Below are positions 1 through 36,678 of a stretch of 37,415 nucleotides of DNA, piece by piece. Made by a program: the position numbers and the translations under genes. Source of the stretch: a virus; IMG/VR virus record IMGVR_UViG_3300009839_000001; one strand, given 5' to 3'. The notes below the pieces were generated by a model. That model did not search any database and had not been told where the DNA came from. It was given only the letters and a program-made list of their open reading frames with translations. The stretch's first letter is position 1, and each line of letters starts with the position of its first letter.

Positions 1-123
1 TCCATGTATCCGGCTTCCCGTACACTCTTCACGCGAGGCCTGCGATCATCTTGCGAACCTCTGACGCGCACGAGCGAACATCGCGGCCGCACGCCGCCGA
101 AGATTCCCGATATCGCACTCGCA
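1..123. repeat. Direct terminal repeat, copy 1 (identical to 37293-37415)
   Basis: Bases 1-123 (tccatgtatccggcttcccgtacactc...cgatatcgcactcgca) recur exactly at the window end. Unit length is 37292 bp. Confidence 0.95.
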
Positions 124-222
124 AAGCCACGCGTGGCACGTTCCGCAGTATTGGCACGGCTTCACCGACCAGTCGCCATCGAGTAACTTGCAAACCTCAC
201 AAACTTGCATCTGCCACATAAC

Positions 223-747
223 TCACCGAGTCAGAGCGATTATGCCCACGATGCCGGCGAGCGCGATCCATGCCCAAGTGCTGATATCACTCGAACCGAA
301 CGGAAGAACACCCGAGAGCAAGTTCTGCACATTGGTTTCGGCGCTCGGACCGGCCGCTGCAGTTGCGGTTGTCAAACATCCTGCTTCGGCGTTCGGCGGA
401 GGCGGTGTAACCGAGCCTGGATTCGCCGCGGCCAGCGCGCGCATATTTTGAATCTGCTGGACGCAATCGCTCGCTGCATAATCGATCTGAGCATTCGTCG
501 CAGCTCCGGTCGCTGCATTCATCAGAGCGGTGTAAGTCGCATTCGTGCCCGGCGGAGTCGGCGCTGGCCAAAAATATTTGTAAAAGTTCTCTGCGGTGTC
601 TACCACGGCCGCATCAGGATTTCCCCACGTGTACCAGGCCGGTGTGAGCAGTGACACACTCTGCTCTGCAGCCTGGCCGTAGCTCATGTCATCACCGAGA
701 GCTCTTCGGCGCCGTCTCACCGCGGGTTGTCGAGTCGCGACGTACAT
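223..747 (-). CDS. Tail-anchored membrane protein, MYV/LGD family paralog
   Basis: 174-aa ORF. N-terminus MYVATRQPAVRRRRRALGDD. C-terminal hydrophobic helix WAWIALAGIVGIIALTR. AAGG lies just upstream of the ATG. Confidence 0.6.
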   Translation of the reverse strand: MYVATRQPAVRRRRRALGDDMSYGQAAEQSVSLLTPAWYTWGNPDAAVVDTAENFYKYFWPAPTPPGTNATYTALMNAATGAATNAQIDYAASDCVQQIQNMRALAAANPGSVTPPPPNAEAGCLTTATAAAGPSAETNVQNLLSGVLPFGSSDISTWAWIALAGIVGIIALTR

Positions 748-764
748 ACCTTAGGTACTTTAGG

Positions 765-1199
765 TTACAAACTCACAGAACCCTGAGTTAGATACTTGGA
801 ACCGAGATACGCGGCCGCGCCGAGCAGAGCGACGGTCGCGAGTGAGACTTTCGGCAGATGGAATCCTCTACTCCGGCGCCGCCGCGGCGATGGGGCAGCT
901 CCACCGCCGCCGAACAGACTTCCGCCACCCTGGCCGAGATGCTTCAACAGGAACGCGCCACCGATCAGCACTCCGCCGATCATCGCAACACTCGTCCACG
1001 AGAGCCCGAATAAGCCCTCGGTGCTCACTGCGGTTCCGCTACTGTAATCCAACTGCTGAAGATCTCCCATGGTCACGAGCGGTGGACCGGTAAGCCGGCC
1101 CATTCGTCCGAGATCCGGTTGCTGCATCACCATGGCTGCGCACGATGGGCTTTCGATCATGCGTCGTTTTCGCATCGCCGTTTCTGCCGGAACGTACAT
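765..1199 (-). CDS. Gly-rich membrane protein, MYV-family N-terminus
   Basis: Start set at ATG 1199 (MYVPAETAMRKRRM), which has GGAG about 6 nt upstream. The ORF stays open to 1235. Two hydrophobic segments and an RRRR cluster. Confidence 0.5.
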   Translation of the reverse strand: MYVPAETAMRKRRMIESPSCAAMVMQQPDLGRMGRLTGPPLVTMGDLQQLDYSSGTAVSTEGLFGLSWTSVAMIGGVLIGGAFLLKHLGQGGGSLFGGGGAAPSPRRRRSRGFHLPKVSLATVALLGAAAYLGSKYLTQGSVSL

Positions 1200-1373
1200 A
1201 CTTGCTCCAATCGTTTGGTCTTTTGCCTTGCTCACGCCGTTCTGTGTCGATTTCGGCGTGTGTGCTCGCGATCAGTTGCTCGCGATCGTTCTCAGAAAAA
1301 AGAGCTTCGACCAGATCCAGCCAGATCTGGTCGTTCGTTGACTCCCTCGAAATTGTGTGGGGGAGTCGCCGCG

Positions 1374-1733
1374 TCACCTCCGCTTTCCCATAAGCAGCAG
1401 GAGGAAGACGAGAGCCCCTCCACCGATCAGAATCCAGGTGTTCGAAATCCCTGAAATCCACTGACTACCGCCGGCTGCCTGGTACTGTGCGGCTGCCTGA
1501 ACGACACTCGCCGGTGCGCCTGGCAAGGCTGCAGCCGCGAGAAGTGTCTGCGGTGAAACGGTCGGAATCGGAGCCGGATAATTCACGAGACTCGATGGCA
1601 GAGCCGGAGTGGAAGTGTCGAGTGGCGGTGCGACGTCCGATGCAACCCAGAGCGCGGGATTGTAGGAAGCGTACAGCGACGAGGAATCTCCAAGAGAGCG
1701 CCGGCGCCGCGGCATCGCTGATAGATAGCTCAT
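1374..1733 (-). CDS. Tail-anchored membrane protein, MSY..RRRRSLGD / IGGG..GKRR family
   Basis: 119 aa. N-terminus MSYLSAMPRRRRSLGD. C-terminus WILIGGGALVFLLLLMGKRR. Confidence 0.65.
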   Translation of the reverse strand: MSYLSAMPRRRRSLGDSSSLYASYNPALWVASDVAPPLDTSTPALPSSLVNYPAPIPTVSPQTLLAAAALPGAPASVVQAAAQYQAAGGSQWISGISNTWILIGGGALVFLLLLMGKRR

Positions 1734-1737
1734 AGAC

Positions 1738-2562
1738 TCACCGCCGTTTCCCGGACATCATGAGGATCACCAGAAGCAATCCCGCACCGATCAAGAGCAT
1801 CGAACCGCTGAGACCTCCGAAGGTCGACGCGAGCGAAGTCGCTGGCGCCGCTGTCTTCACCGTCGCCGGCGTTGCTGGTTTCAAAGCAGCCGAGAGAACG
1901 CTCGTGATATCCGTCCCGATGCTTGTCGTCAAGCTCGGTGCAGCCGCGGCCGTTGCGGATGAGCTGATTAACGTCGGTGTTGCTGTCGGCAGATTGAGAA
2001 TCGACGACGGAAAACTAGCTCCCGGGGCAGAAGCAGCGACGGTCTCGAGACTCGGAGCAAGATCGTTCGTAACCTGCAGAGGTGCCGTGTCCGGCATCAG
2101 ATCGCTCCACGTGTCATCCTGTCCGAGTGCGCGAGCTCTGCGATAGCCGCGTAGTGTCGATGCCATGCGGCGCGCCGCCAAAATTCCCGCATAAGCTTTC
2201 GAAACGCGGTCGAGCTGATCCTGGGTGAGTGCGGATGCGAGCCGGCCAAGTCCACCGAGACCGCTCACTCCCTGTTGCAAAGCGTCATTCCAGCAATCGA
2301 TCAGGAGTCCACTGTTCGCATCGCCACACGGATTCAGACTCGGCTCATAGCCCCAGCGGATCGCAACGCCGGTCCGGCAGAGAGGATTCGCGGCGAGGAA
2401 CGCTCGCCAAAGATGCGGGAAGTTCTTCCCTTTCAGTTTCTGGTAAGCTGCCCACTGCTTTGCACAGGTCGGCGAAAGTTCGGCCAGCCGTGCAGCGCCT
2501 GGCATCGGCATTCCGCTGGCGATCGGATCGCCGAGCGATCTTGCGACTGTATTGATGTACAT
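1738..2562 (-). CDS. Tail-anchored membrane protein, same family
   Basis: 274 aa. N-terminus MYINTVARSLGD. Ala/Thr/Ser-rich linker. C-terminus MLLIGAGLLLVILMMSGKRR. Confidence 0.65.
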   Translation of the reverse strand: MYINTVARSLGDPIASGMPMPGAARLAELSPTCAKQWAAYQKLKGKNFPHLWRAFLAANPLCRTGVAIRWGYEPSLNPCGDANSGLLIDCWNDALQQGVSGLGGLGRLASALTQDQLDRVSKAYAGILAARRMASTLRGYRRARALGQDDTWSDLMPDTAPLQVTNDLAPSLETVAASAPGASFPSSILNLPTATPTLISSSATAAAAPSLTTSIGTDITSVLSAALKPATPATVKTAAPATSLASTFGGLSGSMLLIGAGLLLVILMMSGKRR

Positions 2563-2572
2563 GACAAACCCT

Positions 2573-3439
2573 CTATTTCCGCATCAGCATGAACAGAACC
2601 AAGAGCCCACCGCCGATCCAGATCAGACTTGAGTAATCCGGAGTCGTTGCCACGACGGCCGTTGTGCCGGTGGCCGCGGCTGTACCCGCAGCGCCCGCAG
2701 CGACGAGCGCCGCATTGGTGATCGGTGCACAACTCGGATCGTTCGGGTTGTAGCCCGGATACGAGGGATTGGTGCAAATCGGGTTATTCCCGGTCGTACA
2801 GCTCGGATCCGATGGGTTGTAATATTGGCTCGTCGTGTCCGAACACACGGGCGACGTGTTCCAGGGAGCGTAATTGCTCGTGCCGTAAGAAGTCCCGCGC
2901 CGATTGTTCGATTTGTATTGGCGTCCCTGCCCACCCTGCCCACCCTGCCCACCCTGGCCCCCTTGCCCACCCTGGCCCCCTTGCCAACGGCTCGAACCTG
3001 GCGCTGTGACAGGTGTGACAGGTGCCGGCGTCGGTCCGAGAGCAACTGGGAATCGCGGTGTGGCGATCGGCCGGCGGCCGATCCGTAGACCAGACGTGGC
3101 CACAACACCGAGCCCTTGCAGTTCAACGGGTCCGCCATAGGGCGACATGTCGCGATAGGTCGACGGTGCCCAGGGCATCGAACCATAGTTCACCGGTGCC
3201 CCTGATCCGGACGGCTGTGCACCGGTTCCGCACGTGGTACACCTCCGGCGCCGGTGCTTCTGCTGGGATCCTCCACCTGGTCGACTGCCACGCCAGCCAC
3301 CTCCGCCGCCGCCGTAACCGTAGCCTTGACCGCCGATAACTGGTGCGACGGCCGGTGCTGAACTGCAGACGCGTGCACCGCTCGTGGGATCGATCGTGCA
3401 AGTGTCACCGAGACTCGATGGAACGACTAGATACGACAT
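2573..3439 (-). CDS. Gly/Cys/Pro-rich tail-anchored membrane protein, same family
   Basis: 288 aa. N-terminus MSYLVVPSSLGDTCTIDP. Contains GYGYGGGGGGW and a (GGQ)n run. C-terminus LIWIGGGLLVLFMLMRK. Confidence 0.65.
   Translation of the reverse strand: MSYLVVPSSLGDTCTIDPTSGARVCSSAPAVAPVIGGQGYGYGGGGGGWRGSRPGGGSQQKHRRRRCTTCGTGAQPSGSGAPVNYGSMPWAPSTYRDMSPYGGPVELQGLGVVATSGLRIGRRPIATPRFPVALGPTPAPVTPVTAPGSSRWQGGQGGQGGQGGQGGQGGQGRQYKSNNRRGTSYGTSNYAPWNTSPVCSDTTSQYYNPSDPSCTTGNNPICTNPSYPGYNPNDPSCAPITNAALVAAGAAGTAAATGTTAVVATTPDYSSLIWIGGGLLVLFMLMRK
2925..2986. repeat. 9-bp tandem repeat (ccctgccca-like units) encoding (GGQ)n on the minus strand
   Basis: Read directly: ccctgcccaccctgcccaccctgcccaccctggcccccttgcccaccctggccccc. 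It translates to GGQGGQGGQGGQGGQGGQGRQ. Confidence 0.85.
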
Positions 3440-3442
3440 GCG

Positions 3443-4216
3443 TCATCTCCTACCCATCAAAAGAAACAAAATCAGTCCACCGCCGAGAAGCCAGATCCAG
3501 ATAGGCAACCCGGCGAGTGTGCTGCTACTCAAAGCCGAAATCCCGGACGAGCCGTAACTCACCATAATGCTCGGTGTGCCGGCGATCGCACCGTTTGTCG
3601 GAGTGGCCGGGATCGTGTAGCTTCCACCCCCAGATTGAATCAGTGCGGTTAAATTCGCGACGGTCGGTTCGACGATGAAGCAACCGAGACAGCACGCCGC
3701 GTTGCACGTCCCGGACATATTGCAGCAAGGTCGGGAAACGGATGTTCCAGGTCCGCTATAAACACAGCTCGGATCGCAGTCACCGCCCTTTTTGATAATT
3801 CCACTCACGCTCGAGTAGTAACTCGATTGTGCCGATTGCAGAGCGCTGATCGCCGCGGCCGGAGTCAGCGAGCCCGCGGAGAGCGCCGCCATGATCTGCT
3901 GAACCGCGGCCAGGAACGCGGGCAGGTTCGCGGTTAGAGTTGAACCCTCTTTTGAAACTGCAGCCGCATGCGAGCTCGTGAAAAGATTCGCGATCGTTCC
4001 GACGATCGGAGCGAGAGCCGGACCGACAACCGGAATCAGGCTAACTCCTACCTCCGCGGTCTTCACGCCGGCTTGCTCTCCAGGGGATGCGGTAAGACCG
4101 AGGCGCCCGACAGCCTGGTGATTGTCTTGGCGCACACGAGCTGCACGATAAGCACCGAGCGACATCGGCCGTCGCATCACGAGCTGCGAACTGGCGGGCT
4201 GCGTTGAAACGTACAT
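3443..4216 (-). CDS. Cys-rich tail-anchored membrane protein, same family
   Basis: Start moved to ATG 4216 (MYVSTQPASSQLVMRRPMSLG) by analogy with the paralogs. Cys cluster CCNMSGTCNAACCLGC. C-terminus IWIWLLGGGLILFLLMGRR. Confidence 0.6.
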   Translation of the reverse strand: MYVSTQPASSQLVMRRPMSLGAYRAARVRQDNHQAVGRLGLTASPGEQAGVKTAEVGVSLIPVVGPALAPIVGTIANLFTSSHAAAVSKEGSTLTANLPAFLAAVQQIMAALSAGSLTPAAAISALQSAQSSYYSSVSGIIKKGGDCDPSCVYSGPGTSVSRPCCNMSGTCNAACCLGCFIVEPTVANLTALIQSGGGSYTIPATPTNGAIAGTPSIMVSYGSSGISALSSSTLAGLPIWIWLLGGGLILFLLMGRR

Positions 4217-4283
4217 CGCTAACTTTCCAGCCGGCGGGCGTCCGGCCATTCGACCCGATCTTTTTCGTCGTCAATCGGCATAT

Positions 4284-5117
4284 TCATTTGCTTCGGGAGT
4301 ACAAAAAAATTCCGCCGCCGATCGCGAGCAGACAGAGAAGAGCAGTCGTCGAAATGTTTCCGCTCACCGCCGGCGCTGCAACGACAGGGACAGGAATCGG
4401 CGGGTTTGTCCCATAAGTGAGCCGGCTCGCAGCCGCGGCGATTAGCGGGCTCGCAACGTCGTAGATCTCCTGCTGTGCTGGAGTCCAGGTCGATTGATCC
4501 GGAAGTGTGCTCCCATCGCCGAGCCTGGGATGAGAATAAGTTTTCGATCGATAGATCACGGGCGGCTCCCATCCGGCAAACGAGTGCGGCACTGTGGAGT
4601 CGAGACCTTTCCACTGTCCCGTTCGTTTGTCTTGCGCGACCACGTACACATGCGAGAACTGATCCGGAGCTGCTCGAGCTGCAGCGACCGTTTTGAACTG
4701 GACGTTATAGCCGACCGATCGCAGTAGCGCCGCGATCAGAATCGAGTGATCGTCACAATCACCGGCGCCGAGCTGCAGCGTAACCACCGGGCTCTGTAAG
4801 GTCTCGGCGTTCTCGCCGCGAAACTCGATATTGTGTTTAACCCAAGCGAGAACGGAATCGATCTCGTCGATGTTCTTCACGGATCCGCGAACGGCTTCGA
4901 GAGCCTTCACTCGCACCTGGGGATTGCCGACGCCTTCCGGTCCGATGACGAGGCTTTGCATATGGAGGATCGTTTTATGGATCGCCGAATCACCGTGACC
5001 GATCTTCCATCGGCGCATTCGGTAAGACGAAGACGGGGCCCGGGCGAGCTTTTCCGCGCAATCCATGGCTTGCAGTGTTCGGTTGAGACTTAGCCCGACA
5101 TTGGAAGGAAGCCGCAT
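4284..5117 (-). CDS. Transglutaminase-like cysteine peptidase domain protein with C-terminal membrane anchor; first gene of the minus arm
   Basis: GAGDCDDHSILIAALLRSVGYNV ... HVYV ... GLDST fits the Cys-His-Asp transglutaminase-core pattern. C-terminus ALLCLLAIGGGIFLYSRSK. Confidence 0.65.
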   Translation of the reverse strand: MRLPSNVGLSLNRTLQAMDCAEKLARAPSSSYRMRRWKIGHGDSAIHKTILHMQSLVIGPEGVGNPQVRVKALEAVRGSVKNIDEIDSVLAWVKHNIEFRGENAETLQSPVVTLQLGAGDCDDHSILIAALLRSVGYNVQFKTVAAARAAPDQFSHVYVVAQDKRTGQWKGLDSTVPHSFAGWEPPVIYRSKTYSHPRLGDGSTLPDQSTWTPAQQEIYDVASPLIAAAASRLTYGTNPPIPVPVVAAPAVSGNISTTALLCLLAIGGGIFLYSRSK

Positions 5118-6026: not shown

Positions 6027-7526
6027 ATGGCAAAGTCAAACAAGGCGCGTACCCGCGGGCCGGAGGTCGTAGATCCTTCGGCCGAACCATTCACAGGCGA
6101 GTTTTTAGATGTTGAGAACGAACCGGTCACCGATCCGCGGTTGATCCACGAACAGTGGATGGCCCAGGTGATGAACCCCAACGTAACTTTCTTCGATGCG
6201 CTCGCCGAAATCCCGAAAGGCGGATGGGACCTGCTGAGTCTCTATCTCTACCGGCTGGAGCCGAAGATCGCGAACCGGGAAGGTGAACAGAAATACATCG
6301 ATTGCTATGGGACGCCGATCAGCGAAGCAAGTGTGAAAGCATCCCACGGTGGAGGAAAGTTCGAGGCTTACTTGAAGGCCGGAAAGACGACGCTCCGCAA
6401 ACACAAATTCTGGATCGATGGTGAGCCGCTTTACAAAGACGGTCAAACTTTCCGCGGAGGTGCGACACCTGGTGCGCCTGCAGGATCGATTCTCCCGCCG
6501 GCGCTCAGTAACGAGCAGGGAATCGCAAGCATCGTGCGCCAGGTCATTGAAGCGACGAAGGGTGACTCGAAAGCTGCGGATGCCGGAATCGAAGTGCTGA
6601 AACGCGCCATGATGGACGGCCTCGAGCTCACGAGCTCGATCTCGAAAAGACAGATGGAGTCCACGACCGGAAGCGCGATCGGCGATAAGCTTTTCGATCA
6701 ACTCTTGCCGAAACTTCTCAATCCTCCAAGCCAACCCACAACAGATCCCCTCGTGCTGAAACTTCTCGATGCAGTGATCGCGAGCAATAAATCAGAGCGA
6801 CGAGAGCAAAATCCGACACCAACGCCGGCGGGCGGAACCGAACTTACCCTCGTGAAGGATCTGCTTGGAGTCGATTCGCTGCGCGAACTGATTGAGTTTG
6901 GCAGCAAGCGCAGTGCCGAAACACCCTGGTACGTAACTCTAATCGCGAACGGTCTCTACAAACTTCCAACTCTTCTGAACGAATTCGCGCAGATGCAAGA
7001 ACGCGCATTCCAGCGCGCGCTAATCGCTCACCAGGTCAGTCTCGGTGCGAATCCGGCCAACGCTGCAAGACCGGTTGCCTTCGCGAGCGCACCAATGATC
7101 CCGGTCGATCGCGCCGCGGTTCCACCGAAGATGCCCGCGGCTCCGGCGAGCTCTATCTCGGTCAGTGAGCAGATGATCGCCGGCGTTGTCGAAGGAATCA
7201 CCAGAGCATACGACGAAGGGTATCCGGGTGATGTTGCCGGCGCGCACATCCGCCTGCTCTACCCTCAACTCGTCGATTCATTGAGGCCGCTCCTGGCCGA
7301 CGAACAGCAACTCTCCGCCTTCGTTGCGCAGATGCCTCCGCTCGCCGAACGATCGCGCGAACCTGAATGGCATGAGTTTCAGCAGGAACTGATCGAAGAG
7401 CTGAGCCAAGTCCCGATGCCGGCCGGAGAAGCCGCTGCGAGTGCAGTTCCGGATAATCTCGCGGTGCTATCACCGGAAGCAGCGGGTGGGGTGGCAGCGG
7501 ATCCTGGAAAAAAGAAAGTGAACTGA
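6027..7526 (+). CDS. Large hypothetical protein (499 aa), acidic C-terminus
   Basis: Longest plus-arm ORF, with ATG preceded by GGAG. No convincing catalytic motif; see the rejected P-loop-like AYLKAGKT. Confidence 0.7.
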   Translation: MAKSNKARTRGPEVVDPSAEPFTGEFLDVENEPVTDPRLIHEQWMAQVMNPNVTFFDALAEIPKGGWDLLSLYLYRLEPKIANREGEQKYIDCYGTPISEASVKASHGGGKFEAYLKAGKTTLRKHKFWIDGEPLYKDGQTFRGGATPGAPAGSILPPALSNEQGIASIVRQVIEATKGDSKAADAGIEVLKRAMMDGLELTSSISKRQMESTTGSAIGDKLFDQLLPKLLNPPSQPTTDPLVLKLLDAVIASNKSERREQNPTPTPAGGTELTLVKDLLGVDSLRELIEFGSKRSAETPWYVTLIANGLYKLPTLLNEFAQMQERAFQRALIAHQVSLGANPANAARPVAFASAPMIPVDRAAVPPKMPAAPASSISVSEQMIAGVVEGITRAYDEGYPGDVAGAHIRLLYPQLVDSLRPLLADEQQLSAFVAQMPPLAERSREPEWHEFQQELIEELSQVPMPAGEAAASAVPDNLAVLSPEAAGGVAADPGKKKVN

Positions 7527-16585: not shown

Positions 16586-16687
16586 GCGATCGCAGCGATG
16601 GCAATGTCACGCATCTCGCCGTCGCCAGTTTCATAGAAAACGTGAACTGTCTTTGGTGTCGCAGAGACTACTTTTGAGGTGGTGGTC

Positions 16688-17368
16688 ATGAAAATTAAAA
16701 TCAAGCATCGCTACACCGGGAAACTTATTTTCGAGCACGAAGCCGAGAAGAACACTCTCAGATTGACCCTCGAACACGCTGTTTCACTTAATGCGAACCT
16801 GTCCGGCGCGAACCTGTACGTCGCGAACCTGTCCGGCGCGAACCTGTCCGGCGCGAACCTGTCCGTCGCGAACCTGTCCGTCGCGAACCTGGACGGCGCG
16901 AACCTGGACGGCGCGAACCTGTCCGGCGCGAAGCTGTCCGGCGCGAAGCTGTACGGCGCGAACCTGTACGTCGCGAACCTGTCCGGCGCGAACCTGTCCG
17001 GCGCGAACCTGTCCGTCGCGAACCTGTCCGGCGCGAACCTGTCCGGCGCGAACCTGTCCGGCGCGAACCTGTCCGGCGCGAACCTGTCCGGCGCGAACCT
17101 GTCCGGCGCGAACCTGTCCGGCGCGAAGCTGTCCGGGCAAAGGCCAGTGATCCAGATCGGTCCTATTGGGTCACGCCGTTCCTATCTTTCGGCGTTCATC
17201 ACTGAGAAAGGGCTGCGTCTCCACACCGGATGCTTTTTGGGAACGCGTGACGAATTTGTTAACGAACTCCTTCGCACGCACGGAAGCAATGAGCACGCAA
17301 GCGAGTATCAGTGCGCGCTCGCGCTGATCGATAAGCACGTCGAACTGTGGACTCCAAAGAAAGCATGA
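16688..17368 (+). CDS. Pentapeptide-repeat protein
   Basis: ATG 16688 follows GAGGTGGTGG. About 23 consecutive A(N/K)L(S/Y/D)(G/V) pentapeptides lie between unique N- and C-terminal domains. Confidence 0.9.
   Translation: MKIKIKHRYTGKLIFEHEAEKNTLRLTLEHAVSLNANLSGANLYVANLSGANLSGANLSVANLSVANLDGANLDGANLSGAKLSGAKLYGANLYVANLSGANLSGANLSVANLSGANLSGANLSGANLSGANLSGANLSGANLSGAKLSGQRPVIQIGPIGSRRSYLSAFITEKGLRLHTGCFLGTRDEFVNELLRTHGSNEHASEYQCALALIDKHVELWTPKKA
16793..17136. repeat. About 23 tandem copies of the 15-bp unit gcgaacctgtccggc (near-perfect)
   Basis: Read directly. Variants occur only at tccggc/tacgtc/tccgtc/gacggc and aac/aag. Several other reading frames are open across the array for the same reason (shadow ORFs 16784-17140 minus, 16791-17150 plus). 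Confidence 0.95.
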
Positions 17369-19354: not shown

Positions 19355-20505
19355 GCAATCCCAGACGTTTGTCTGGGTTAGCGACGGCCTTGTTTTTGGT
19401 TCTAGAAAGGAGGACATGATGATTCAGTATCAGTTAAAACTTCGAATGTGCAAGTCACAAGAGCAGAAGTGCGAACAGTTTTTATATCACCTGTCCTCTG
19501 TCTGGAATTGGGCGGTGCGGAAAATAGAACTCAACGCCAAAGACCACATCTATTTTTCCAAGATGGAGTTTCAGAACTTTCTCTCCAACCACAGCGAAAA
19601 GATGGGCATTCCGTCACACACGTTGCAAGGTGTCATCTGTACAGCACATGATGCGTGGAAACGTTGCTTCAAGAAGATTGGTGGCAAACCAAAACTCAAA
19701 GGGATGCGTAACAAGATGTCTAGCATTCCGTTCCCTGACCCCATCAAAGCGCCAAAGGGAAACCGCATCAATCTGCCTGCTCTCGGCTCTGTCCGCTTCC
19801 ACAAGATGGAATTGCCTGATGGCAAGATAAAATGTGGTCGGATTGTTAAGCGTACATCAGGCTGGTATCTGTGCTTGTTTATTGATGCCCAGCCGAAGGT
19901 GATAGAGCGAACGGGGTATGGCGTCATTGGTGTAGATGGAGGATTTAAGGATTTGCTAACGCTCTCCACAGGGGAGAAGATTTCACACCCACGAGAGTTG
20001 GAAGTAGCAGCAGAACGTCTTGCTCAAGCACAGCGTGGGCACGACACAAAGTTAGCAGCACGGATTCAGGAGAAGATTGCGAACAGGCGTAAGGATAGGA
20101 ACCATAAACTGTCTCGTCGTTTGATTGCAGAAAATGTAGTTATCAAGTTTTCAGCGGACAACCACAAAGCGGTTGCTCGTAGATTCGGCAAGAGTGTCGC
20201 TAGTTCAGGGCATTCACAACTTCAGAGGATGCTTGCGTACAAGTCGCCCCAAAGCGGTACGCAGTACTTTGAGATTGCGCCAAAAGATTCCACCAAGACT
20301 TGCTGGGTATGTGGGGAGCCAACTGGACCTACAGGACTCGCAGGATTGTCGGTAAGGCAATGGCGATGTACAACGTGTGGAACGTTCCACGACCGCGACC
20401 AAAACGCTGCGGTCAACACGCTCATTGCTGCGGCAGGATGTGCCGTCGAGGTCTGCATATGAGCGCAGACATAATCAGGAATCGCAGACTTCAGTCTGCG
20501 AGCAT
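19355..20505 (+). mobile_element. IS200/IS605-family TnpB-only insertion (IS1341-like); boundaries approximate
   Basis: Visibly AT-richer block carrying tnpB. Subterminal hairpins cccagac-gttt-gtctggg (19360-19377) and cgcagac-ttca-gtctgcg (20483-20500). No Y1 tnpA ORF. Confidence 0.75.
19416..20462 (+). CDS. tnpB: TnpB (IS605 OrfB) RNA-guided endonuclease-like protein
   Basis: GVDGGFKDL (RuvC-I), zinc finger CWVCG...CTTCG, and HDRDQNAAVNT (RuvC-III). AAGGAGG RBS. Confidence 0.9.
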   Translation: MMIQYQLKLRMCKSQEQKCEQFLYHLSSVWNWAVRKIELNAKDHIYFSKMEFQNFLSNHSEKMGIPSHTLQGVICTAHDAWKRCFKKIGGKPKLKGMRNKMSSIPFPDPIKAPKGNRINLPALGSVRFHKMELPDGKIKCGRIVKRTSGWYLCLFIDAQPKVIERTGYGVIGVDGGFKDLLTLSTGEKISHPRELEVAAERLAQAQRGHDTKLAARIQEKIANRRKDRNHKLSRRLIAENVVIKFSADNHKAVARRFGKSVASSGHSQLQRMLAYKSPQSGTQYFEIAPKDSTKTCWVCGEPTGPTGLAGLSVRQWRCTTCGTFHDRDQNAAVNTLIAAAGCAVEVCI

Positions 20506-22890: not shown

Positions 22891-23103
22891 TCAATGTTTC
22901 TTCACGACTTGGTTCGCCATCAGGTAGAAGAGCGCGAGGAAGCCGATCAACCAAACCGCATAGCTCCCATAGATCGCGCCAGGCGAAGGCAGATTGAGCT
23001 GCTGTGCATCAGGATCGTTCTGCGGATTCGAGTAGAGATAAACCTGGGGCAGCTCACTCGGATCACCGTCTCTGAGTGTCACGTACACGATTAGTCCATC
23101 CAC
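22891..23103 (-). CDS. Small tail-anchored membrane protein (last gene of the minus arm)
   Basis: 70 aa. GTG start 23103 overlaps the SLT gene; alternative GTGs at 23088 and 23082. C-terminus YAVWLIGFLALFYLMANQVVKKH. Confidence 0.45.
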   Translation of the reverse strand: MDGLIVYVTLRDGDPSELPQVYLYSNPQNDPDAQQLNLPSPGAIYGSYAVWLIGFLALFYLMANQVVKKH

Positions 23104-23669
23104 CAGAGCAAGAGCACGGCGCCGCCGATGACCAGGCCAGCGACGAGATCAATATTCAGGTTTGGCGTGGCAAGGTTCCCCAAGATATCGGCGGAAGAGA
23201 TCTGCGGACCGGCGTCAGTGCTGCCAGGCGGACTCGATTGCATCTGGTCGAGACCGGCGTTATAGACCGTGCTGATCCCGAGAATCCCTTTCACGTAGTT
23301 CACGACTTCACCCGGCCACGAAGTGCCGGCCGCGGTCGCGTTGTCCACGTTTCCACCGCCCCAATTGTAGGCAGCAAGCGCGAGATCCCAGGATCCGTAC
23401 TTTTGATAGAGCTGTTTGAGGAACGTCACTCCACCCTGGATGTTCTGATTGACGTCATTGGGATCGACGCCGAGTTGTGCGGCTGTTGCGGGCTCGAGCT
23501 GCATCACGCCGATCGCGCCGGCGGAACTCACGAGGACCGCGCCGCTCGGTCCCCACTGACAGACACCCGATTCAGTTCGAGCGACGGCGAGCGCGATTCC
23601 CGGATCCACACCTTGCCGGTTCGCTTCGTCGATGATCAGACTCGAGAGATCAACTTTGCACGCAGCCAT
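23091..23669 (-). CDS. SLT-family lytic transglycosylase with C-terminal membrane anchor
   Basis: ARTESG (catalytic Glu-Ser), AGAIGVMQLEPATA, ALAAYNWGGGNV. C-terminus VAGLVIGGAVLLLWWMD. Confidence 0.85.
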   Translation of the reverse strand: MAACKVDLSSLIIDEANRQGVDPGIALAVARTESGVCQWGPSGAVLVSSAGAIGVMQLEPATAAQLGVDPNDVNQNIQGGVTFLKQLYQKYGSWDLALAAYNWGGGNVDNATAAGTSWPGEVVNYVKGILGISTVYNAGLDQMQSSPPGSTDAGPQISSADILGNLATPNLNIDLVAGLVIGGAVLLLWWMD

Positions 23670-25634: not shown

Positions 25635-25650
25635 CGAAATAACCTCCAAA

Positions 25651-27057
25651 TTAGTCACCGATCGCGATCCATCTCACGTTGACCGGATCGTTGATGATGG
25701 CACCAGCTTGGGCGGAAATTGTCACGGTGAATACATGCGTGGATAGAGTGTTAAACGTAGCCCATCCCCACTGATTTCCGCTTGCGTCAGTCGCAGCATC
25801 CAAACTTCCGGTGATCGTGAAGACTGCGGTCGGGAAAGTTAATGGAAAGCTGGCGGTAAGCGATGCCGTCGAGGATCCAGTTGAGAATGTTCCTATAGTT
25901 CCCCACTCGATGATAGTGCTACCGATCGTCAGTGATCCGCTCGCCGCGGTTAAACAGCCGGAAGTCGTCGCGCCGTGATTCGCGTCGGTGCAGAGGGGTA
26001 AAGATATTCCGGAACCGATCGTTCCAGCGGTTAGCACTGCCGGATCCGTGCCCTGCGTCGTGGAATAGCTTGGAGCGCCAGGAGATCCGGTGAGATTTGC
26101 GAAGACAGAATTTGCCGGCGCATTCGAAAGAAGGAAACTGAGCGCCGGTGTCGTCGTCGGAGTCGCAACGCTCGTCGTGAAGAGCGGTGACAAAGTACCT
26201 GCACTGAAACTGCTCACCGTATTAGAGCAACCTACTGTTGTCGCTCCGCCTGTGGCATCTCGGCAAAAAACATTTCCCTTACCGCCGCTGCCATCAGCGC
26301 TCAGCACCGCGGTATCCGTGCCCTGCGTCGTGGTATAGCTCGGAGGGGCAGGAGATCCGGTGAGATTCGCGAACACAGAATTCGCCGGCGCATTCGAAAG
26401 AACGAAACTCAACGCGGGCGTCGTCGTCGGAGTCGCAACGTTCGTCGTGAACAGTGGCGAGAGAGTCCCGGCACTGAAAGTCGTGAGCGTTCCAGTGATA
26501 CTCAGATCTCGAACGAAGACACCATTCTGCCGCAAGATCAGATGGGAGACGCCGGCGCTCTGGCCTTCGTTCTGCAGCGTCATGTTCAGTCCGGAAAGGT
26601 TGACGGGATTGACGGTGTAAGGGCTCGTCGAATTCGATTGATCGTTCGTGACGGTGCCAGGCGCGACACCTGTTGCCACGGCACAAGCGCATGCGCCACT
26701 CGGTGCGATCGGCGTAGACGTTTTCAAAACGTCGTACGAAGCGGGGAAGGCGGGAAACGTGGGATTGATCGTGACGAAGTTCGAAACCGACAGCACATTC
26801 GGCGCATTGCTAATCGGAAACGGTCCGGCCAGATTCGCACTGCCCACGAGGTAATTTGCCGAAATCCAGTAATAGATCGTTTGCGGTCCAGGATTTCCGC
26901 TGAGCGCGATCGTGGCACCAGAAGCCGGTGCCGGATTCAACGTGAACACCGGCAAAGTGATCTGCTGAGTTGTGACTGGATTCGCCGGTACCTGCTGTGC
27001 AATCGCAACTGCGACTAAGCTTGCAAAGACCAGGAAGCCGATAGTGAGTTTTCGCAT
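25651..27057 (-). CDS. Secreted spike/adhesin-like protein, paralog B (468 aa)
   Basis: ATG 27057. MRKLTIGFLVFASLVAVAIAQ. Shares PVFTLNPAPA..GPQTIYYW..PSGACACAVAT..DQSNSTS.YTVNPVNLSGLN.TLQNE..SHLILRQNG.FV.DLS with paralog A. Ends ..VRWIAIGD. Confidence 0.6.
   Translation of the reverse strand: MRKLTIGFLVFASLVAVAIAQQVPANPVTTQQITLPVFTLNPAPASGATIALSGNPGPQTIYYWISANYLVGSANLAGPFPISNAPNVLSVSNFVTINPTFPAFPASYDVLKTSTPIAPSGACACAVATGVAPGTVTNDQSNSTSPYTVNPVNLSGLNMTLQNEGQSAGVSHLILRQNGVFVRDLSITGTLTTFSAGTLSPLFTTNVATPTTTPALSFVLSNAPANSVFANLTGSPAPPSYTTTQGTDTAVLSADGSGGKGNVFCRDATGGATTVGCSNTVSSFSAGTLSPLFTTSVATPTTTPALSFLLSNAPANSVFANLTGSPGAPSYSTTQGTDPAVLTAGTIGSGISLPLCTDANHGATTSGCLTAASGSLTIGSTIIEWGTIGTFSTGSSTASLTASFPLTFPTAVFTITGSLDAATDASGNQWGWATFNTLSTHVFTVTISAQAGAIINDPVNVRWIAIGD
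25939..26478. repeat. Intragenic tandem duplication, 2 x ~270 bp (90 aa)
   Basis: Protein segments FSAGTLSPLFTT(N/S)VATPTTTPALSF(V/L)LSNAPANSVFANLTGSP..PSY.TTQGTD.AVL occur at aa 194 and aa 284. They are mirrored by the look-alike shadow ORFs 26090-26338 and 26360-26620. Confidence 0.85.
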
Positions 27058-27065
27058 GTTACACC

Positions 27066-27757: not shown

Positions 27758-28591
27758 TCAAAACGTCTGATAGACGGGTGCGAGCGCCACGCTCACATAG
27801 GCATTGGTCGTCGTCGTGTTCGTGAAACACAACGAATTTCCGGTCGTTCCTGAGAACAAAGCGCCGACGCCGCTCCCCTGAGATAGATCCGGGAGTGTGC
27901 CCGCATAAATATCAATGACCCACACAGCCACAAGCCCGGTACAGGAACTGGGAGAAGTGCTCGACTGGAACTCGATGAAACCAGATGAGGGAGCCGCTCC
28001 GAAACTGACGATATATGAACAAACACGAATCGTGCTGTTCGAGACTCCCCCGAAAAGCTGAAGCGTGGTACCGGCATTAACCGGGAACTGCGCTGATTGA
28101 TTACACACCGTAGGTGCGGTCGCTCCAATTCCTGATTGTCCAGTTGGTGAGAATGAGATGGGACCGGAAGAAGCGTTGTAAGTGGCCACGATCGTATTAA
28201 TCGATGCGGTCATCACGGAACGAATATTTTGATAGTACCCACCTGCCTGCAAAATCGCACACCCTGAGAGTGGCGTAGCGATATAGCTCGAAAATGCGAT
28301 CGGAATCCAGTTTGTTGCCCCGTCGTAACTCTCCTCGATATCCACAGTTCCGGTGAAATTTCCACCTGACGAACAGTAGGAAAGCCAGTGGGCGGACTGG
28401 CCTACATTGTTGAAGATCTGTGAAACGCCGGCGGTGTAGACGGCTTTCTGCGAGACCGTGAATGTGCCCGTCGTGCCGGCGTTCTGCGCGAAGACCGGCG
28501 CCGGACTAAATTCGCGCATGACACCCGCACCAATGGCGAGCGCGCACGTTAGAGCGACGCAAATCCAGAAACCCTTGAGAGAAGCTTTCAT
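27758..28591 (-). CDS. Secreted beta-rich structural protein
   Basis: Start set at ATG 28591 (ATGA overlap with the upstream stop): MKASLKGFWICVALTCALAIGAGV, then a Thr/Ser/Gly-rich body. Confidence 0.55.
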   Translation of the reverse strand: MKASLKGFWICVALTCALAIGAGVMREFSPAPVFAQNAGTTGTFTVSQKAVYTAGVSQIFNNVGQSAHWLSYCSSGGNFTGTVDIEESYDGATNWIPIAFSSYIATPLSGCAILQAGGYYQNIRSVMTASINTIVATYNASSGPISFSPTGQSGIGATAPTVCNQSAQFPVNAGTTLQLFGGVSNSTIRVCSYIVSFGAAPSSGFIEFQSSTSPSSCTGLVAVWVIDIYAGTLPDLSQGSGVGALFSGTTGNSLCFTNTTTTNAYVSVALAPVYQTF

Positions 28592-29256
28592 TGGAGAACT
28601 CCCTTGCCCGAGGTATTCGTTGCCTGGATCAGTGGATAAGTCCATCCGTGGAATCGCGCCGCAGTTCTCGTGCCCACCGGCATCGGAGGTTGCGCGGCCG
28701 GTACTTCGGCCGTGACCTGCACGATATCTCGCTCATGGAGACGGAAGACGAAATCGTTCGGTTGCGCATAGGTTGCGACCTGGGAAGTCAGATCGTTCAA
28801 TCCATCGATCCCGCCGCCATTGATCAGCACGCGCCAGATCACATTGCCGGTCCCATCAGGCGGATTCCCGCCCACGTGGACGATCGCTAGTTTGGTGATC
28901 ACTGCGAGCTGCCCTGCTGGCACGACGTACTCGATCACGTCGATCGGTCCGGCGCCGGGCGCGGGATATGCGGGGAACGGATTCGGCGTGATGATAAAGG
29001 GGAGGGAATCTGCCGGAGGATTGAAAAGCGAGATAGCGCGGTTCATGAACGATGGACCGGAGAGTGCCGTCTTCACTCGCGACGACATGGAAAGTTTTTG
29101 GGCATCAGTCCAGGGCTGGCCAGCAATGTTCGGATTCGCCCACGAAGACACCGGCGGAGGTGAGGGTGAGCACACACTCACTCCGTTCTGCACTACGCAC
29201 GTGTCACCGAGACGCAACCGCGGAGGAACATAGGACAAAACTCTTCGCATCGTCAT
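28588..29256 (-). CDS. Structural protein carrying the family N-terminal tag (no C-terminal anchor)
   Basis: MTMRRVLSYVPPRLRLGDTCVV parallels MSYLVVPSSLGDTCTI of 2573-3439. Beta-rich C-terminal half. ATGA overlap with the M15 gene. Confidence 0.6.
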   Translation of the reverse strand: MTMRRVLSYVPPRLRLGDTCVVQNGVSVCSPSPPPVSSWANPNIAGQPWTDAQKLSMSSRVKTALSGPSFMNRAISLFNPPADSLPFIITPNPFPAYPAPGAGPIDVIEYVVPAGQLAVITKLAIVHVGGNPPDGTGNVIWRVLINGGGIDGLNDLTSQVATYAQPNDFVFRLHERDIVQVTAEVPAAQPPMPVGTRTAARFHGWTYPLIQATNTSGKGVLQ

Positions 29257-32323: not shown

Positions 32324-33046
32324 TTACTGCACGCCGCGGTATAGTTCGCCGTCCAGGATCACGTACACGGTCGTTCCGACGCCGTTCGGACGCGAAGCAG
32401 CCGCCGAGAAGTTGAATGCAGTCTCCGGGTTCAGCGTGAAGCTGAAACCTTCGCCGCCTTCAATTACGATGGGCTGATTGAGCGTAAAAACGGACCGGGG
32501 ATCGGGTACGCCGTTGCTGGTCGAAACAAACTGCACGTCACCAACGGCCACGGTGCCGAGCTCGGCTGCCGAGTAGGCAATCGCGCCACGGCCGGCGGTC
32601 AGGTTCAGTGCCGGGCACTCGAGCATCGGCTTTTTGCCGACAGTCAGGGTGCACGAAACGTTCTGCAGGAAGTTCACCAGGTCCACGGGCGCGGTATTGT
32701 TGGCGAAGAACAGGGCAATGGCGCGGATAACCAGCTTCTGCGGTTGCTCGAGCTGGCCGGCCTTCGTCATGTACGTCTGTGCCAGTGTCTTTCCGCCCTG
32801 CCCAATGGGAGTTTGGAAAAGCACCGTTTTCGCCATCGCAGCCGCCTGCGCGAAGCTCACGGAGTCATAAACGGGTTGGTTGATGACTTCCATCAGATTC
32901 GCCACGAGCGGGTTTTTGCCGGATACCTTCGGCATGCGACCAAAGTTGAGCGGTGCCAGGAGCGAGGGATCGAATCCCTCTCCCCGGACTGCTCGCCCGA
33001 GCTGCGCGTATCGATCAAACCTTTCGATCTGTAAACGAGAAATCAT
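32324..33046 (-). CDS. Putative major capsid protein (beta-rich; inference only)
   Basis: 240 aa from ATG 33046 (GTG 33058 is also possible). Alternating beta-strand-like pattern: LFQTPIGQGGKTLAQTYMTKAGQLEQPQKLVIRAIALFF...VYVILDGELYRGV. Placement is central in the late arm. Confidence 0.35.
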   Translation of the reverse strand: MISRLQIERFDRYAQLGRAVRGEGFDPSLLAPLNFGRMPKVSGKNPLVANLMEVINQPVYDSVSFAQAAAMAKTVLFQTPIGQGGKTLAQTYMTKAGQLEQPQKLVIRAIALFFANNTAPVDLVNFLQNVSCTLTVGKKPMLECPALNLTAGRGAIAYSAAELGTVAVGDVQFVSTSNGVPDPRSVFTLNQPIVIEGGEGFSFTLNPETAFNFSAAASRPNGVGTTVYVILDGELYRGVQ

Positions 33047-33125
33047 TGTGAATCGCACCTGCTTTCTGGAGAAAATTTGTGCCGCGGAACCTCTCCGGAG
33101 ATCCGCGGGCTAAACTTTCGTCGAG

Positions 33126-34980: not shown

Positions 34981-35286
34981 TTAGTGCCGCGGACGCCGGC
35001 GAGTTATTGTTTCGATCGGTTGGCCATCGGGCGGTGCCGGCTGCGCGCCCGGAACTTGCCCGCCGAACATCAGTTTCAGGAACATGTCTTTCTCGGCGTC
35101 ACCCTTCTTCGCCATCTCGCGTCTGAACTCGATATCCTCACGGCAGAGTTGTGCGTTCTCACGTTGCTGGTCAATCCCAGCCTGCGCCATCTTCAAAGCC
35201 TCAGCCTGGTAATCCCGGAGCGCTTCGAGTAGATTTCCGATGCGAGTCAGAGCGCTATAGATCGTTCCATCTTCGAGATCTGCCAT
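34981..35286 (-). CDS. Coiled-coil protein (scaffold-like; inference)
   Basis: 101 aa, charged and helical. TGATG overlap with the upstream gene. Confidence 0.5.
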   Translation of the reverse strand: MADLEDGTIYSALTRIGNLLEALRDYQAEALKMAQAGIDQQRENAQLCREDIEFRREMAKKGDAEKDMFLKLMFGGQVPGAQPAPPDGQPIETITRRRPRH

Positions 35287-36365
35287 CAGTTTACGATCCC
35301 TTCCGGTTTCACGACGTAGGCGCCGCCGACGAGGTGAATCCGTTTCTTTCGCCGATCGTACACCACTCGTGGGCGCTCGCCTGTTTCCTCTCCGAGATCA
35401 TGCCAGTATTGGACCGGCTGAAAATTGTCAAATTTTTTCTGAGTGAAGTACTCGACCTGGTACGCAAACCCCAGGTCGAGCAGATCTTTATCCGCACGGA
35501 TCGGGAGCTTCTCGATCGATTCGTCGAGGTTCTGACTCCCACCGATAATGTAGAGTTGCCGTCCGCCAGGCTCGGCTGCGAGATCCGGAGCTTCTCTAGA
35601 TCCCCACTCGATTTTCTTGACCCAAGGCGGATCCGCGTCTTTGTCACCGATGGTAAGAGATACGAGCTTGCCGAGTTGTGCAAGCTCGTGATGATCACCG
35701 TAATCGGCAATCGGCAGTCCGGTGTCAGTCACGCGTGCAGGCCCCTTGCCATGGAATTTACTGTACAGCTCGGTTGAGTCAGCATAGTTGCGCCGGCGCG
35801 CGTTCTTCCTCGCATGGCGGTGCTTTCGTGGATTGAGACTCTGAGCAGCATCTTCGGCATCACGCCGTTCGGGAAACACACGACTCATTCGACCCGTCCG
35901 GCTCCTGGCGCGCCAGCCTCCGGGCACTTTGATCACTGGATTCTTGGTCGCGGTTTTTAGTTCCTGCGCTTTTTTCACGACTTCGGAGAACTGCGCAGTG
36001 GTTAGTTGCTTGACCGATTTTCCTGGATATAGCGACCGCAACGCTTCATGGAAAAGTGTTGTGTCGCGGTTCTCGTTCCGTTTGGACAGAGATTTGATCT
36101 TCCCGGTCAGTCGATGGAACGCGCCTTTCGCATAGGTACCGAGCTCCATGATGTGACCCTTCACCCTCGCAACTGTTCGCCCGTGCGGATTGCGCGTCAG
36201 CACGCTGTATCTGGGACCGCTGCGAAACCAGAGTGTTTTGATGAAGGCCCCAGGGATCGAGCGTTCTTTCTTCACCGCGTCGGCTTTCTCGGTGAACGCA
36301 CCGTGGAAGTTGAACAGATCCCCCTGGCCGTAATTCTTTCGCGTTTTGGCTTTTCGGCGCTGCAT
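35286..36365 (-). CDS. Hypothetical structural-arm protein, basic N-terminal half
   Basis: 359-aa ORF. The C-terminal ..YQVEYFTQKKFDNFQPVQYWHDLGEETGERPRVVYDRRKKRIHLVGGAYVVKPEGI looks like a conserved small phage domain that I cannot name with confidence. Confidence 0.65.
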   Translation of the reverse strand: MQRRKAKTRKNYGQGDLFNFHGAFTEKADAVKKERSIPGAFIKTLWFRSGPRYSVLTRNPHGRTVARVKGHIMELGTYAKGAFHRLTGKIKSLSKRNENRDTTLFHEALRSLYPGKSVKQLTTAQFSEVVKKAQELKTATKNPVIKVPGGWRARSRTGRMSRVFPERRDAEDAAQSLNPRKHRHARKNARRRNYADSTELYSKFHGKGPARVTDTGLPIADYGDHHELAQLGKLVSLTIGDKDADPPWVKKIEWGSREAPDLAAEPGGRQLYIIGGSQNLDESIEKLPIRADKDLLDLGFAYQVEYFTQKKFDNFQPVQYWHDLGEETGERPRVVYDRRKKRIHLVGGAYVVKPEGIVN

Positions 36366-36477
36366 AGAGCCTCATTGCTGCACGTAAGTCAGAACAAATT
36401 TGTTGATTGGCGTCGTGCCACCCATCCAGGCTGCGACCGTGAGATCGAGCGGAAGTTTGAAATATCGCTGCACTCAT

Positions 36478-36678
36478 TCATCCCTTTTTCGAATAGATGG
36501 GCACGAGCTGTGAGTTCGATCCCATCGCCAAGTGCTTCTGAAATCCAAGAGCCTGCCACAAGAACGTGAACGGCTTGCTCTGCAGCTTTCGCCGGCCACA
36601 TTGGTACACGACGCGGTACCCGGTGATCGTGCCGAGTTCCGTCGTCGATCCGTCACTATTGACCGCGAGAAAAGCCAT
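36478..36678 (-). CDS. Hypothetical 66-aa protein
   Basis: High third-position GC when hand-translated. The ATG lies in copy 1 of the 99-bp repeat. Confidence 0.5.
   Translation of the reverse strand: MAFLAVNSDGSTTELGTITGYRVVYQCGRRKLQSKPFTFLWQALGFQKHLAMGSNSQLVPIYSKKG

Follow-up and report, generated by a model that had tools for sequence, protein, structure and literature searches.

How viruses with an internal membrane load their own proteins into it and exclude those of the host is poorly understood, and the phages PRD1 and PM2 give outlines only (PMC6356626). In both, phage membrane proteins enter the cytoplasmic membrane, and a phage-specific patch of it becomes the internal membrane of the virion (PMC6356626). 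Internal-membrane phages also carry virion-bound wall hydrolases, and their membrane proteins register capsomers (PMC6356626). Another described system is the Salisaeta phage SSIP-1. It is a T=49 phage that contains a membrane, two types of capsid protein and a circular genome of 44 kb (PMC6356626, PMC6260650, PMC4958249, PMC5332951), and it was described as a single isolate with almost no relatives in the databases (PMC6356626). Here, the IMG/VR virus record IMGVR_UViG_3300009839_000001 (37,415 nucleotides, the whole of this stretch being called the window) is compared with these systems. The subject is a cluster of minus-strand genes at positions 223–5117, most of which share a short N-terminal sequence (N-tag), a C-terminal sequence (C-tag) or both, and which includes a transglutaminase-like enzyme (TG). 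On balance, we lean towards the view that the cluster encodes tail-anchored virion-membrane proteins of a temperate, tailless, SSIP-1-related phage of Terriglobia, the N-terminal leaders of which are recognised, and probably cut, by the co-anchored enzyme.

An earlier sequence-only reading of the window had described the shared ends, and translation of the minus strand yields them at the same coordinates. A regular expression for the N-tag (M-[STGI]?-[YI]-[VILM]...[LM]G[DNQ], at most 45 residues from the start codon, in open reading frames (ORFs) of at least 60 codons) matched seven times in the window and 0.17 ± 0.37 times in Markov shuffles. Five of these matches are true gene starts (747, 1733, 2562, 3439 and 29238), and two are internal. 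A strict expression for the C-tag matched three times in the window and not once in 40 shuffles. Both tags therefore lie far above the shuffles, and the observation is real.

The ORFs had been taken for one paralog family. Comparison by blastp with the ORFs of related elements resolved them instead into six orthologous families (A–F; Table 1), which have only their ends in common and are each 27–60% identical to their orthologs. Similarity beyond the tags was found between C and D alone (blastp E 7e-9), so the description of the middles as unrelated holds except for this pair, whereas their description as low-complexity fails for family A with its conserved helical Cys-rich domain. The C-terminal anchor reported for four of the ORFs and for TG is present, but F also ends in a transmembrane helix and E in a weaker one. 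Similarly, the N-termini listed for seven ORFs are correct, but E has no canonical LGD, ORF 28588–29256 most likely starts at the TTG at 29238, and a further small N-tagged gene, family H (MAFLAVNSDGSTTELG...), had been overlooked. Orthologs of family H were found in the relatives L003, L004, L005, L007 and L021, and those of family B in L003, L004, L005 and L007. The N-tag and C-tag proteins were scanned with Pfam, NCBIfam and PHROGs, and these gave nothing useful for the six tagged ORFs. Family A is represented by 34 homologs, with both ends conserved in the alignment and 16 invariant residues in the core over 20 sequences. Its AlphaFold2 (AF2) model (predicted local distance difference test (pLDDT) 73) is helical with a disordered N-tag and found no meaningful fold match in the PDB with Foldseek. 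A search of the genome and viral contigs with the family A profile confirmed no loci, the back-translated pattern being too narrow. For family F, the JGI gene call uses an internal MSYGQ start (position 688, residue 21) directly after LGDD, giving 154 instead of 174 residues; the long form is preferred because the orthologs lack the internal Met. The second M-S-Y right behind the LGDD motif is a curious feature of this family.

The C-tag has the consensus G-[IV]-P-x-W-x-W-L-x-G-G-G-x-L-L-L-x-L-x-M-[KR][KR]. In distant relatives, GGG changes to G.G or A.G, and P-x-W-x-W and the basic end are retained. By hydropathy, a single transmembrane helix is predicted for each of B, C, D, F and TG, and it lies at the extreme C-terminus; neither an N-terminal hydrophobic segment nor a signal peptide was found in A–F or TG, the N-termini being polar and Arg-rich. 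The reading of the C-tag as one transmembrane helix at the C-terminus, ending in a basic tail, is well supported. The sequence-only reading had compared it to the sorting signals of sortase, exosortase and rhombosortase (GlyGly-CTERM). Substrates of the sortase type (GlyGly-CTERM, PEP-CTERM or LPXTG) all require an N-terminal signal peptide. None of the curated CTERM or LPXTG models of NCBIfam reached its cut-off with the full proteins (E ≤ 1) or with the isolated C-termini (E ≤ 10), and the GlyGly-CTERM model TIGR03501 matched neither. The best matches below cut-off were LPXTG_anchor with 14.8 bits (cut-off 15.9), spanning the transmembrane and basic part only, and GG_III-CTERM with 9.9 bits (cut-off 22). 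Isolated N- and C-terminal peptides likewise gave sub-threshold NCBIfam matches to the generic transmembrane and basic-tail part only, and no PEP or LPXTG motif precedes the helix, where the sequences read ...GLPIWIW, ...DYSSLIW and ...SNTWIL. As no model was matched at cut-off and both the export signal and the signature motifs are missing, the likeness to sortase-type signals is superficial; in view also of the decay of GGG and of the same anchor in SSIP-1, this part of the earlier reading is not supported.

The N-tag begins, across genomes, with M-[S/T/G/A]?-[Y/I]-[VILM]-x-[TLV]-x-P, followed by an optional Arg-rich spacer of 0 to ~30 residues. The third element is the boundary motif [RK]-x-[LM]-G-[DNQ], after which another acidic residue often comes. 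The leader is 8 to ~40 residues long, the shortest N-tags (MSYVQLGD and MAYIQLGD) having eight residues, and the boundary motif separates this variable-length part from the conserved part of each family. H and the 28588–29238 protein have the N-tag but no anchor, and TG and a lytic transglycosylase (SLT) have the anchor but lack the Y-[VIL] start, so the two are independent modules. Seven instances of the motif [RK].{0,2}[LMF]G[DE] are found in the proteome of the window, as compared with 2.9 expected, and five of the seven lie at N-tag or TG-linker positions. The motif is also found beside TG genes in far more distant contigs (YGRGMGDAR in L015, LAGLRGLGQG in L012/L013). All these findings agree with the earlier proposal of a propeptide or virion-targeting tag that ends in LGD, and this proposal gains support because R-x-[LM]-G-D also sits in the linker of the adjacent TG enzyme, but cleavage is inferred only. 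It had also been held that no phage system with such tags was described. This stands for the N-tag but not for the C-terminal anchor, which has a precedent in SSIP-1; a description of these tags, or of the SSIP-1 anchor as a tag, was not found in the literature.

Other explanations of the N-terminus were considered and rejected. A Tat signal would require a hydrophobic h-region, which does not follow the RR that is present, and a lipobox (L-[AS]-[GA]-C) is missing. An RNA-level or translation-start signal was dismissed on account of conservation at the amino-acid level, the optional inserted Ser, Thr, Gly or Ala and the varied codons. As a separate observation, a Cys hairpin (TC-x9-10-VC), which could be a disulfide or a metal half-site, stands straight after LGD in family B (3380–3403), in the 28588–29238 protein (29180–29203) and in their orthologs.

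TG was matched by Pfam Transglut_core (PF01841) with 34.8 bits (cut-off 23), and its triad of Cys121, His156 and Asp173 is invariant in seven aligned sequences including gp34 of SSIP-1. Its true start is probably internal, at Met18 (5066, the JGI call) or Met34 (5018, MRRWKIGHGD). A C-terminal transmembrane helix is present in 81 of 93 full-length TG homologs. About 10–15 residues past the catalytic domain, 49 of the 93 carry [LMF]G[DE], typically as ...TY.R.[LM]GDD.... The versions of this linker motif in the window (YSHPRLGDGS), L005 (FRGMGEDQ), L003 (YPLGDP), L007 (QAMGDAT) and SSIP-1 gp34 (RARGMGEPT) share one short linker stretch of the alignment. At residues 34–43 of TG, where its true N-terminus probably lies, a further motif, M-[KR]-[KR]-[WF]-x-[IV]-G-x-G-D, is found in 36 of 93 homologs and loosely echoes the basic-Phi-G-D of the N-tag.

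The link to SSIP-1 comes mainly from this enzyme. Among the 57 SSIP-1 proteins, TG was related to the structural protein gp34 (phmmer E 2.7e-13; 36% blastp identity over 114 amino acids), which has the same triad, an R-x-G-M-G-E linker and a GGG-containing C-terminal anchor (...LLLGGGILLGGGYLIAQSSK). Only 11 IMG/VR loci were confirmed with the TG profile, and the SSIP-1 contig is one of them. In SSIP-1, gp34, gp41 and gp53, which are annotated as structural, and ORFs 36, 39, 42, 52 and 54 all have Gly-rich transmembrane ends with short polar or basic tails. Given the homology of TG to gp34 and these anchors on SSIP-1 structural proteins, the C-tag is best read as a virion-membrane anchor. SSIP-1 also resembles the window in its circular genome of similar size (43.8 kb vs 37.3 kb), and in SSIP-1 gp34 is followed by a run of small anchored proteins (ORFs 35–42), by gp43 and by the capsid proteins gp46 and gp47. 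On the other hand, sequence similarity is almost nil except for TG, the N-terminal leader is present in mere traces (MIVQRSLPAP in gp37, ...QGMGD in ORF36), the halophilic Salisaeta host belongs to a phylum other than that of Terriglobia, and SSIP-1 has the 2,319-residue gp43 where the window has a 359-residue protein, g359. Between the C-terminal domain of g359 and the C-terminus of gp43, the similarity is weak (hhalign P 0.017).

A candidate for a jelly-roll major capsid protein, g244, was modelled with AF2 from a 44-sequence alignment. The capsid protein of SPV1 came first in a Foldseek search of the PDB, and those of satellite panicum mosaic virus, SH1 and HHIV-2 were listed too; SPV1, SH1 and HHIV-2 are internal-membrane viruses. 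Against BFVD, I1ZBH9 (211 amino acids) was first with TM 0.47/0.53 and probability 1.0, and I1ZBI0 (256 amino acids) took rank 31. These best fold matches are probably the jelly-roll capsid proteins gp46 and gp47 of SSIP-1. A terminase large subunit, a portal, an HK97-type capsid protein and a tail tube were not found with Pfam and PHROGs among the scanned ORFs and the precomputed Pfam table, and the sole tail-related match in the window is a gp53-like fibre C-terminal domain. Taken together, there is strong support for a cluster of predicted tail-anchored proteins that belong to the membrane of a tailless and probably lipid-containing virion with a jelly-roll capsid, with the C-tag as their anchor. 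PRD1 (Tectiviridae) and PM2 (Corticoviridae) differ by their double jelly-roll capsids and genomes of 10–15 kb, and no sequence similarity to them was detected; to our knowledge, neither a shared N-terminal leader nor a transglutaminase-fold enzyme has been described for them. A type IV secretion or conjugative element was ruled out, as the large ATPases are missing.

The window carries a 123-bp direct terminal repeat (1–123 and 37293–37415), so it closes into a complete, circular genome with a length of 37,292 bp. The minus arm runs from 5117 to 223 and then across the junction from 37172 to 23091, so that the tag cluster leads the structural gene arm. Relatives were found as two IMG/VR genomes, several Logan, ENA and JGI contigs of 37–45 kb and prophages in contigs of metagenome-assembled genomes (MAGs) of Terriglobia (Acidobacteriota), the largest of 497 kb. 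One such prophage is located on JAOAPE010000003.1 of GCA_025462725.1, and from the host MAGs, loci of ~20 kb were read. In every relative examined (at least 10 elements), the gene order is constant, with a divergent ~500-residue gene, TG, four to seven tagged ORFs, small ORFs, the g359 homolog (...EGIVN) and then a Zn-finger protein, an Arg-rich protein and the homolog of 32324–33058. In each of them, g359 is the downstream limit of the tag module. A lack of conservation of the tags in homologous elements had been named as evidence that would refute the earlier reading; they are kept down to ~30–40% identity. An automated and imperfect ORF pass over the TG-to-g359 interval of ten genomes gave 93 ORFs, of which 47 end in a transmembrane helix, 36 start with the N-tag and 29 have both. 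In a collection of species-representative genomes, all seven matches were Terriglobia MAGs, and the source names agree. The group consists of temperate phages and prophages of soil and peat Terriglobia and is widespread. No paper linking SSIP-1 or Helvetiavirae with Acidobacteria was found in the literature. Two near-identical genomes from other samples (L028 and L029) have the same structural arm and an IS1595-type transposase and a C5 DNA methylase in place of the integrase region, which indicates that the lysogeny module varies within one virus species.

From these data, a mechanism may be proposed in which genes 223–5117 form a virion-membrane module, with the anchored TG first and six tail-anchored proteins after it. 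The C-tag, with its interfacial P-x-W-x-W, Gly-rich N-terminal third and basic tail, would insert the proteins into that patch of the cytoplasmic membrane from which the virion forms its lipid layer. Most of each protein, like the catalytic domain of TG, would face the cytoplasm and the capsid. The N-tag would be a short disordered leader with a beta-strand-like start that recruits proteins into the assembling particle, including the anchor-less H and 28588–29238 proteins. Its boundary motif would be recognised and probably cleaved by the co-anchored TG, which would process itself too. The sequences give moderate support to the leader as a common assembly handle with a motif that TG recognises and probably cuts. 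Arguments for this role of TG are the recurrence of the motif at domain boundaries, its linkage to TG across deep divergence and the preference of papain-fold proteases at P2. Such proteases favour a hydrophobic P2 residue (Leu or Met), often with a small Gly near the scissile bond, as in LXGG-type sites. A full virus-encoded system of sorting and maturation, in which the leader marks membrane and soluble proteins and the anchored transglutaminase-fold protease removes it and frees itself, is a more tentative proposal that we regard as less likely than not. The sequences and models show the motifs and their conservation, the anchor architecture, the intact triad, the homology to gp34 and the jelly-roll fold of g244; lipid in the virion, the orientation of the proteins, recruitment by the leader and its cleavage are inferred only.

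Several points weigh against the SSIP-1-like, leader-processing reading. Transglut_core is widespread, so the homology of TG to gp34 does not by itself prove kinship of the viruses. All PDB matches of g244 had E of at least 1.5e-3, and the TM-scores (PDB and BFVD) were 0.3–0.5. The g244 profile aligned to gp46 and gp47 with hhalign P of 0.013 and 0.26, a fold-level likeness only, tblastn of g244 against GenBank phages gave no match, and I1ZBH9 and I1ZBI0 were equated with gp46 and gp47 only from their lengths and consecutive accessions. A packaging ATPase of the FtsK/HerA type had no Pfam or PHROGs match in the window. The motif [RK].{0,2}[LMF]G[DE] is not enriched in the SSIP-1 proteome (5 vs 5.8 expected), family E has no LGD motif, and family A has LG[AL] in its place. 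Topology is uncertain because a basic C-terminal tail on an N-in protein defies the positive-inside rule; the N-in orientation is suggested by the lack of signal peptides and by a catalytic Cys suited to the cytoplasm, and the basic tail could point into the lumen of the virion vesicle, towards the packaged DNA. Finally, an enzyme of transglutaminase fold might just as well act in protein cross-linking or, like NlpC/P60 relatives, in peptidoglycan cleavage, and the computed observations fit a cleavage site and an uncleaved docking motif alike. In the chief alternative, the N-tag including [LM]GD would be a docking peptide that stays in place as a strand added to a common partner such as the capsomer base or a scaffold protein, with TG cutting the wall on entry or cross-linking, which we judge somewhat unlikely. 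The extreme N-terminus M-[S]-Y-[VIL] is conserved as well as LGD, which would be unexpected for a mere cleavage site, the tag of family H resembles part of a small beta protein, gp34 of SSIP-1 is annotated as structural, and wall hydrolases and capsomer-registering membrane proteins are part of internal-membrane virions (PMC6356626). Yet the same motif stands at a domain boundary in the linker of TG itself, which is more typical of self-processing, the genome already has SLT and an M15 peptidase for wall cleavage, and the motif offers neither the Gln nor the Lys needed for transglutaminase cross-linking.

The module might also work in the membrane of the host and not in the virion, in lysis or egress, superinfection exclusion or remodelling of the envelope from the prophage. 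The module adjoins the divergent control region and the integrase, and all its members are small membrane proteins; however, seven conserved genes co-oriented with and leading the capsid and spike genes are unusual for a moron or lysis cassette, in SSIP-1, the annotation gives the TG homolog and several tail-anchored proteins as structural, and an N-tagged anchor-less protein is located amid the spike genes. Such a role is therefore considered unlikely. It is still less likely, and indeed very improbable, that a rhombosortase, exosortase or rhomboid protease of the host processes the C-tag as a sorting signal, with GGG as the cleavage motif, the N-tag as a non-canonical export signal and the protein bodies outside the cytoplasm. 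Exosortase systems are present in many Acidobacteria. With its small-residue motif, its hydrophobic helix and its basic residues, the C-terminus does recall the GlyGly-CTERM/rhombosortase and PEP-CTERM/exosortase pairs, a cytoplasmic basic tail would obey the positive-inside rule, and the Cys-rich domains of A and B could then be disulfide-bonded. In contrast to those signals, the motif here lies inside the helix and is not conserved, with GGG lost in distant relatives, and there is no PEP motif, signal peptide or CTERM model match. The same anchor is found in SSIP-1, the host of which belongs to a different phylum, and the catalytic Cys of TG would face an oxidising compartment.

For the leader-processing mechanism, there are parallels in logic, which are not families that include this system. 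In phage T4, a leader targets virion proteins into the assembling particle and is removed by the phage protease gp21. The T4 capsid-targeting sequence is, like the N-tag, an N-terminal leader common to unrelated virion proteins and is removed at a simple motif; T4 differs in being tailed, with soluble internal proteins and a serine-type protease that cuts L/I-x-E, whereas here the proteins are anchored, the candidate protease has a papain/transglutaminase fold and its cleavage is a prediction. The adenovirus protease is a cysteine protease of a jelly-roll-lineage virus that trims virion precursors at a Leu/Met...Gly motif, its sites being (M/I/L)-X-G-X↓G and (M/I/L)-X-G-G↓X. Some of the leaders (LRGLG, LRGMG) match this consensus literally, but [SA]-L-G-D of the clade of the window does not, and the fold is different (clan CE), so the similarity is an analogy only. 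LapG is a transglutaminase-like cysteine protease that acts on the N-terminus of LapA. It shares with TG the transglutaminase fold with a Cys-His-Asp triad, and its substrate is an envelope protein encoded alongside it, which is cut at a short motif of small residues close to the N-terminus; but LapG is a periplasmic, soluble, cellular enzyme with a di-alanine site (T/P-A-A-G). Against the LapG (BTLCP) equivalog NF045674, TG scored 13.9 bits, below the cut-off of 320.

Table 1. Tagged genes of the window and other features referred to in the text.
Feature	Position	Strand	Description
Family F	223..747	-	N-tag MYVATRQPAVRRRRRALGDD; C-terminal anchor WAWIALAGIVGIIALTR
Family E	765..1199	-	Start MYVPAETAMRKRR; one internal and one weak C-terminal hydrophobic segment
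Family D	1374..1733	-	119 amino acids; N-tag MSYLSAMPRRRRSLGD; C-terminal anchor WILIGGGALVFLLLLMGKRR; C-terminal half related to that of family C
Family C	1738..2562	-	N-tag MYINTVARSLGD; C-terminal anchor LLIGAGLLLVILMMSGKRR
Family B	2573..3439	-	N-tag MSYLVVPSSLGD; Cys hairpin; Gly/Gln-rich repeats; C-terminal anchor
Family A	3443..4216	-	N-tag MYVSTQP...GRLG/LTASP; helical Cys-rich domain; C-terminal anchor PIWIWLLGGGLILFLLMGRR
TG	4284..5117	-	Transglutaminase-like (papain-fold) Cys-His-Asp enzyme; linker motif PRLGDGS; C-terminal transmembrane anchor LLAIGGGIFLYSRSK
SLT lytic transglycosylase	23091..23669	-	Pfam SLT E 5e-19; C-terminal transmembrane helix VAGLVIGGAVLLLWWMD by hydropathy
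N-tag-only protein	28588..29238	-	TTG start; MSYVPPRLRLGDTC; no transmembrane anchor; amid spike/fibre genes
g244	32324..33058	-	Jelly-roll major capsid protein candidate; AF2 model, pLDDT 80
g359	35286..36365	-	Conserved basic protein; C-terminal domain ending ...GGAYVVKPEGIVN; homologs in relatives
Family H	36478..36678	-	66 amino acids; soluble; N-tag-like start MAFLAVNSDGSTTELGTITGYRV; just upstream of the g359 gene
Integrase, DUF5131, RusA, FtsK-gamma domain, N6/N4 methylase, TnpB, M15 peptidase	window		Pfam/PHROGs

Elsewhere in the minus arm, SLT is a further tail-anchored enzyme. Just downstream of family F, a 57-residue Cys-rich zinc-ribbon protein (CEVC...KPCQYCGTC..WLCEC; 46–219, minus strand) is kept in L001, L002 and L005. 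The products of 33126–33953 and 35286–36365 are very Arg-rich, with repeated [KR]-N-P motifs and G-x-G-[DE]-L-F close to the N-terminus, the former also being hydrophobic and Gly-rich in its centre. They may serve as core proteins that condense the DNA, or they may be additional substrates of the protease (NTLGGG↓E). ORFs 23685–25658 and 25651–27141 encode a paralogous pair of spike- or fibre-like proteins with a common N-terminal hydrophobic signal or anchor and a common N-terminal domain, and the 496-residue paralog has an internal duplication of ~45 residues and the gp53-like C-terminal domain. A small PAS-domain protein (27349–27744) lies amid the spike and structural genes, which is unusual in a virion module. 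A perfect 99-bp x2 tandem repeat (36672–36871) is located between gene H and a gene for a basic protein and might be an origin, a packaging site or a regulatory element. Because of this repeat, the 232-residue ORF 36474–37172 looks real, but it was rejected as spurious, as its third-position guanine-cytosine (GC) content is 0.48 vs ~0.6 or higher in most ORFs and it overlaps the conserved gene H and spans the repeat.

In the remainder of the genome, the only Walker-A-like string in a credible gene is AYLKAGKT in the conserved 499-residue ORF 6027–7526. A 15-bp unit is repeated 22.9 times (94% matches) at 16793–17136, inside ORF 16679–17368, which encodes a pentapeptide-repeat-like protein of the replication or early arm. 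The TnpB/OrfB_IS605 gene at 19416–20462, with a Cas12f-like TNB domain, lies in a stretch with a GC content of 0.51–0.53 vs ~0.58 elsewhere and is probably an insertion sequence in the phage genome.

As a kind of feature, the membrane anchor was already known. What appears to be new is the leader that the proteins share, the way it is coupled to an enzyme of transglutaminase fold, and the widespread Terriglobia branch of the SSIP-1 lineage. We know of few phages described for Acidobacteriota, and the soil and peat Terriglobia phages and prophages would enlarge the SSIP-1 lineage. For annotation, the result is of use even without cleavage, as the ORFs can be labelled as predicted tail-anchored virion-membrane proteins and not as substrates of the sortase type. 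For the question of how internal-membrane viruses select their own proteins, the group offers a testable candidate, a short leader with a boundary motif together with a co-anchored cysteine enzyme that bears the same motif. The full system of sorting and maturation, if true, would provide a first defined targeting signal for virion membranes and, in a prokaryotic virus, a first maturation protease of the transglutaminase fold.

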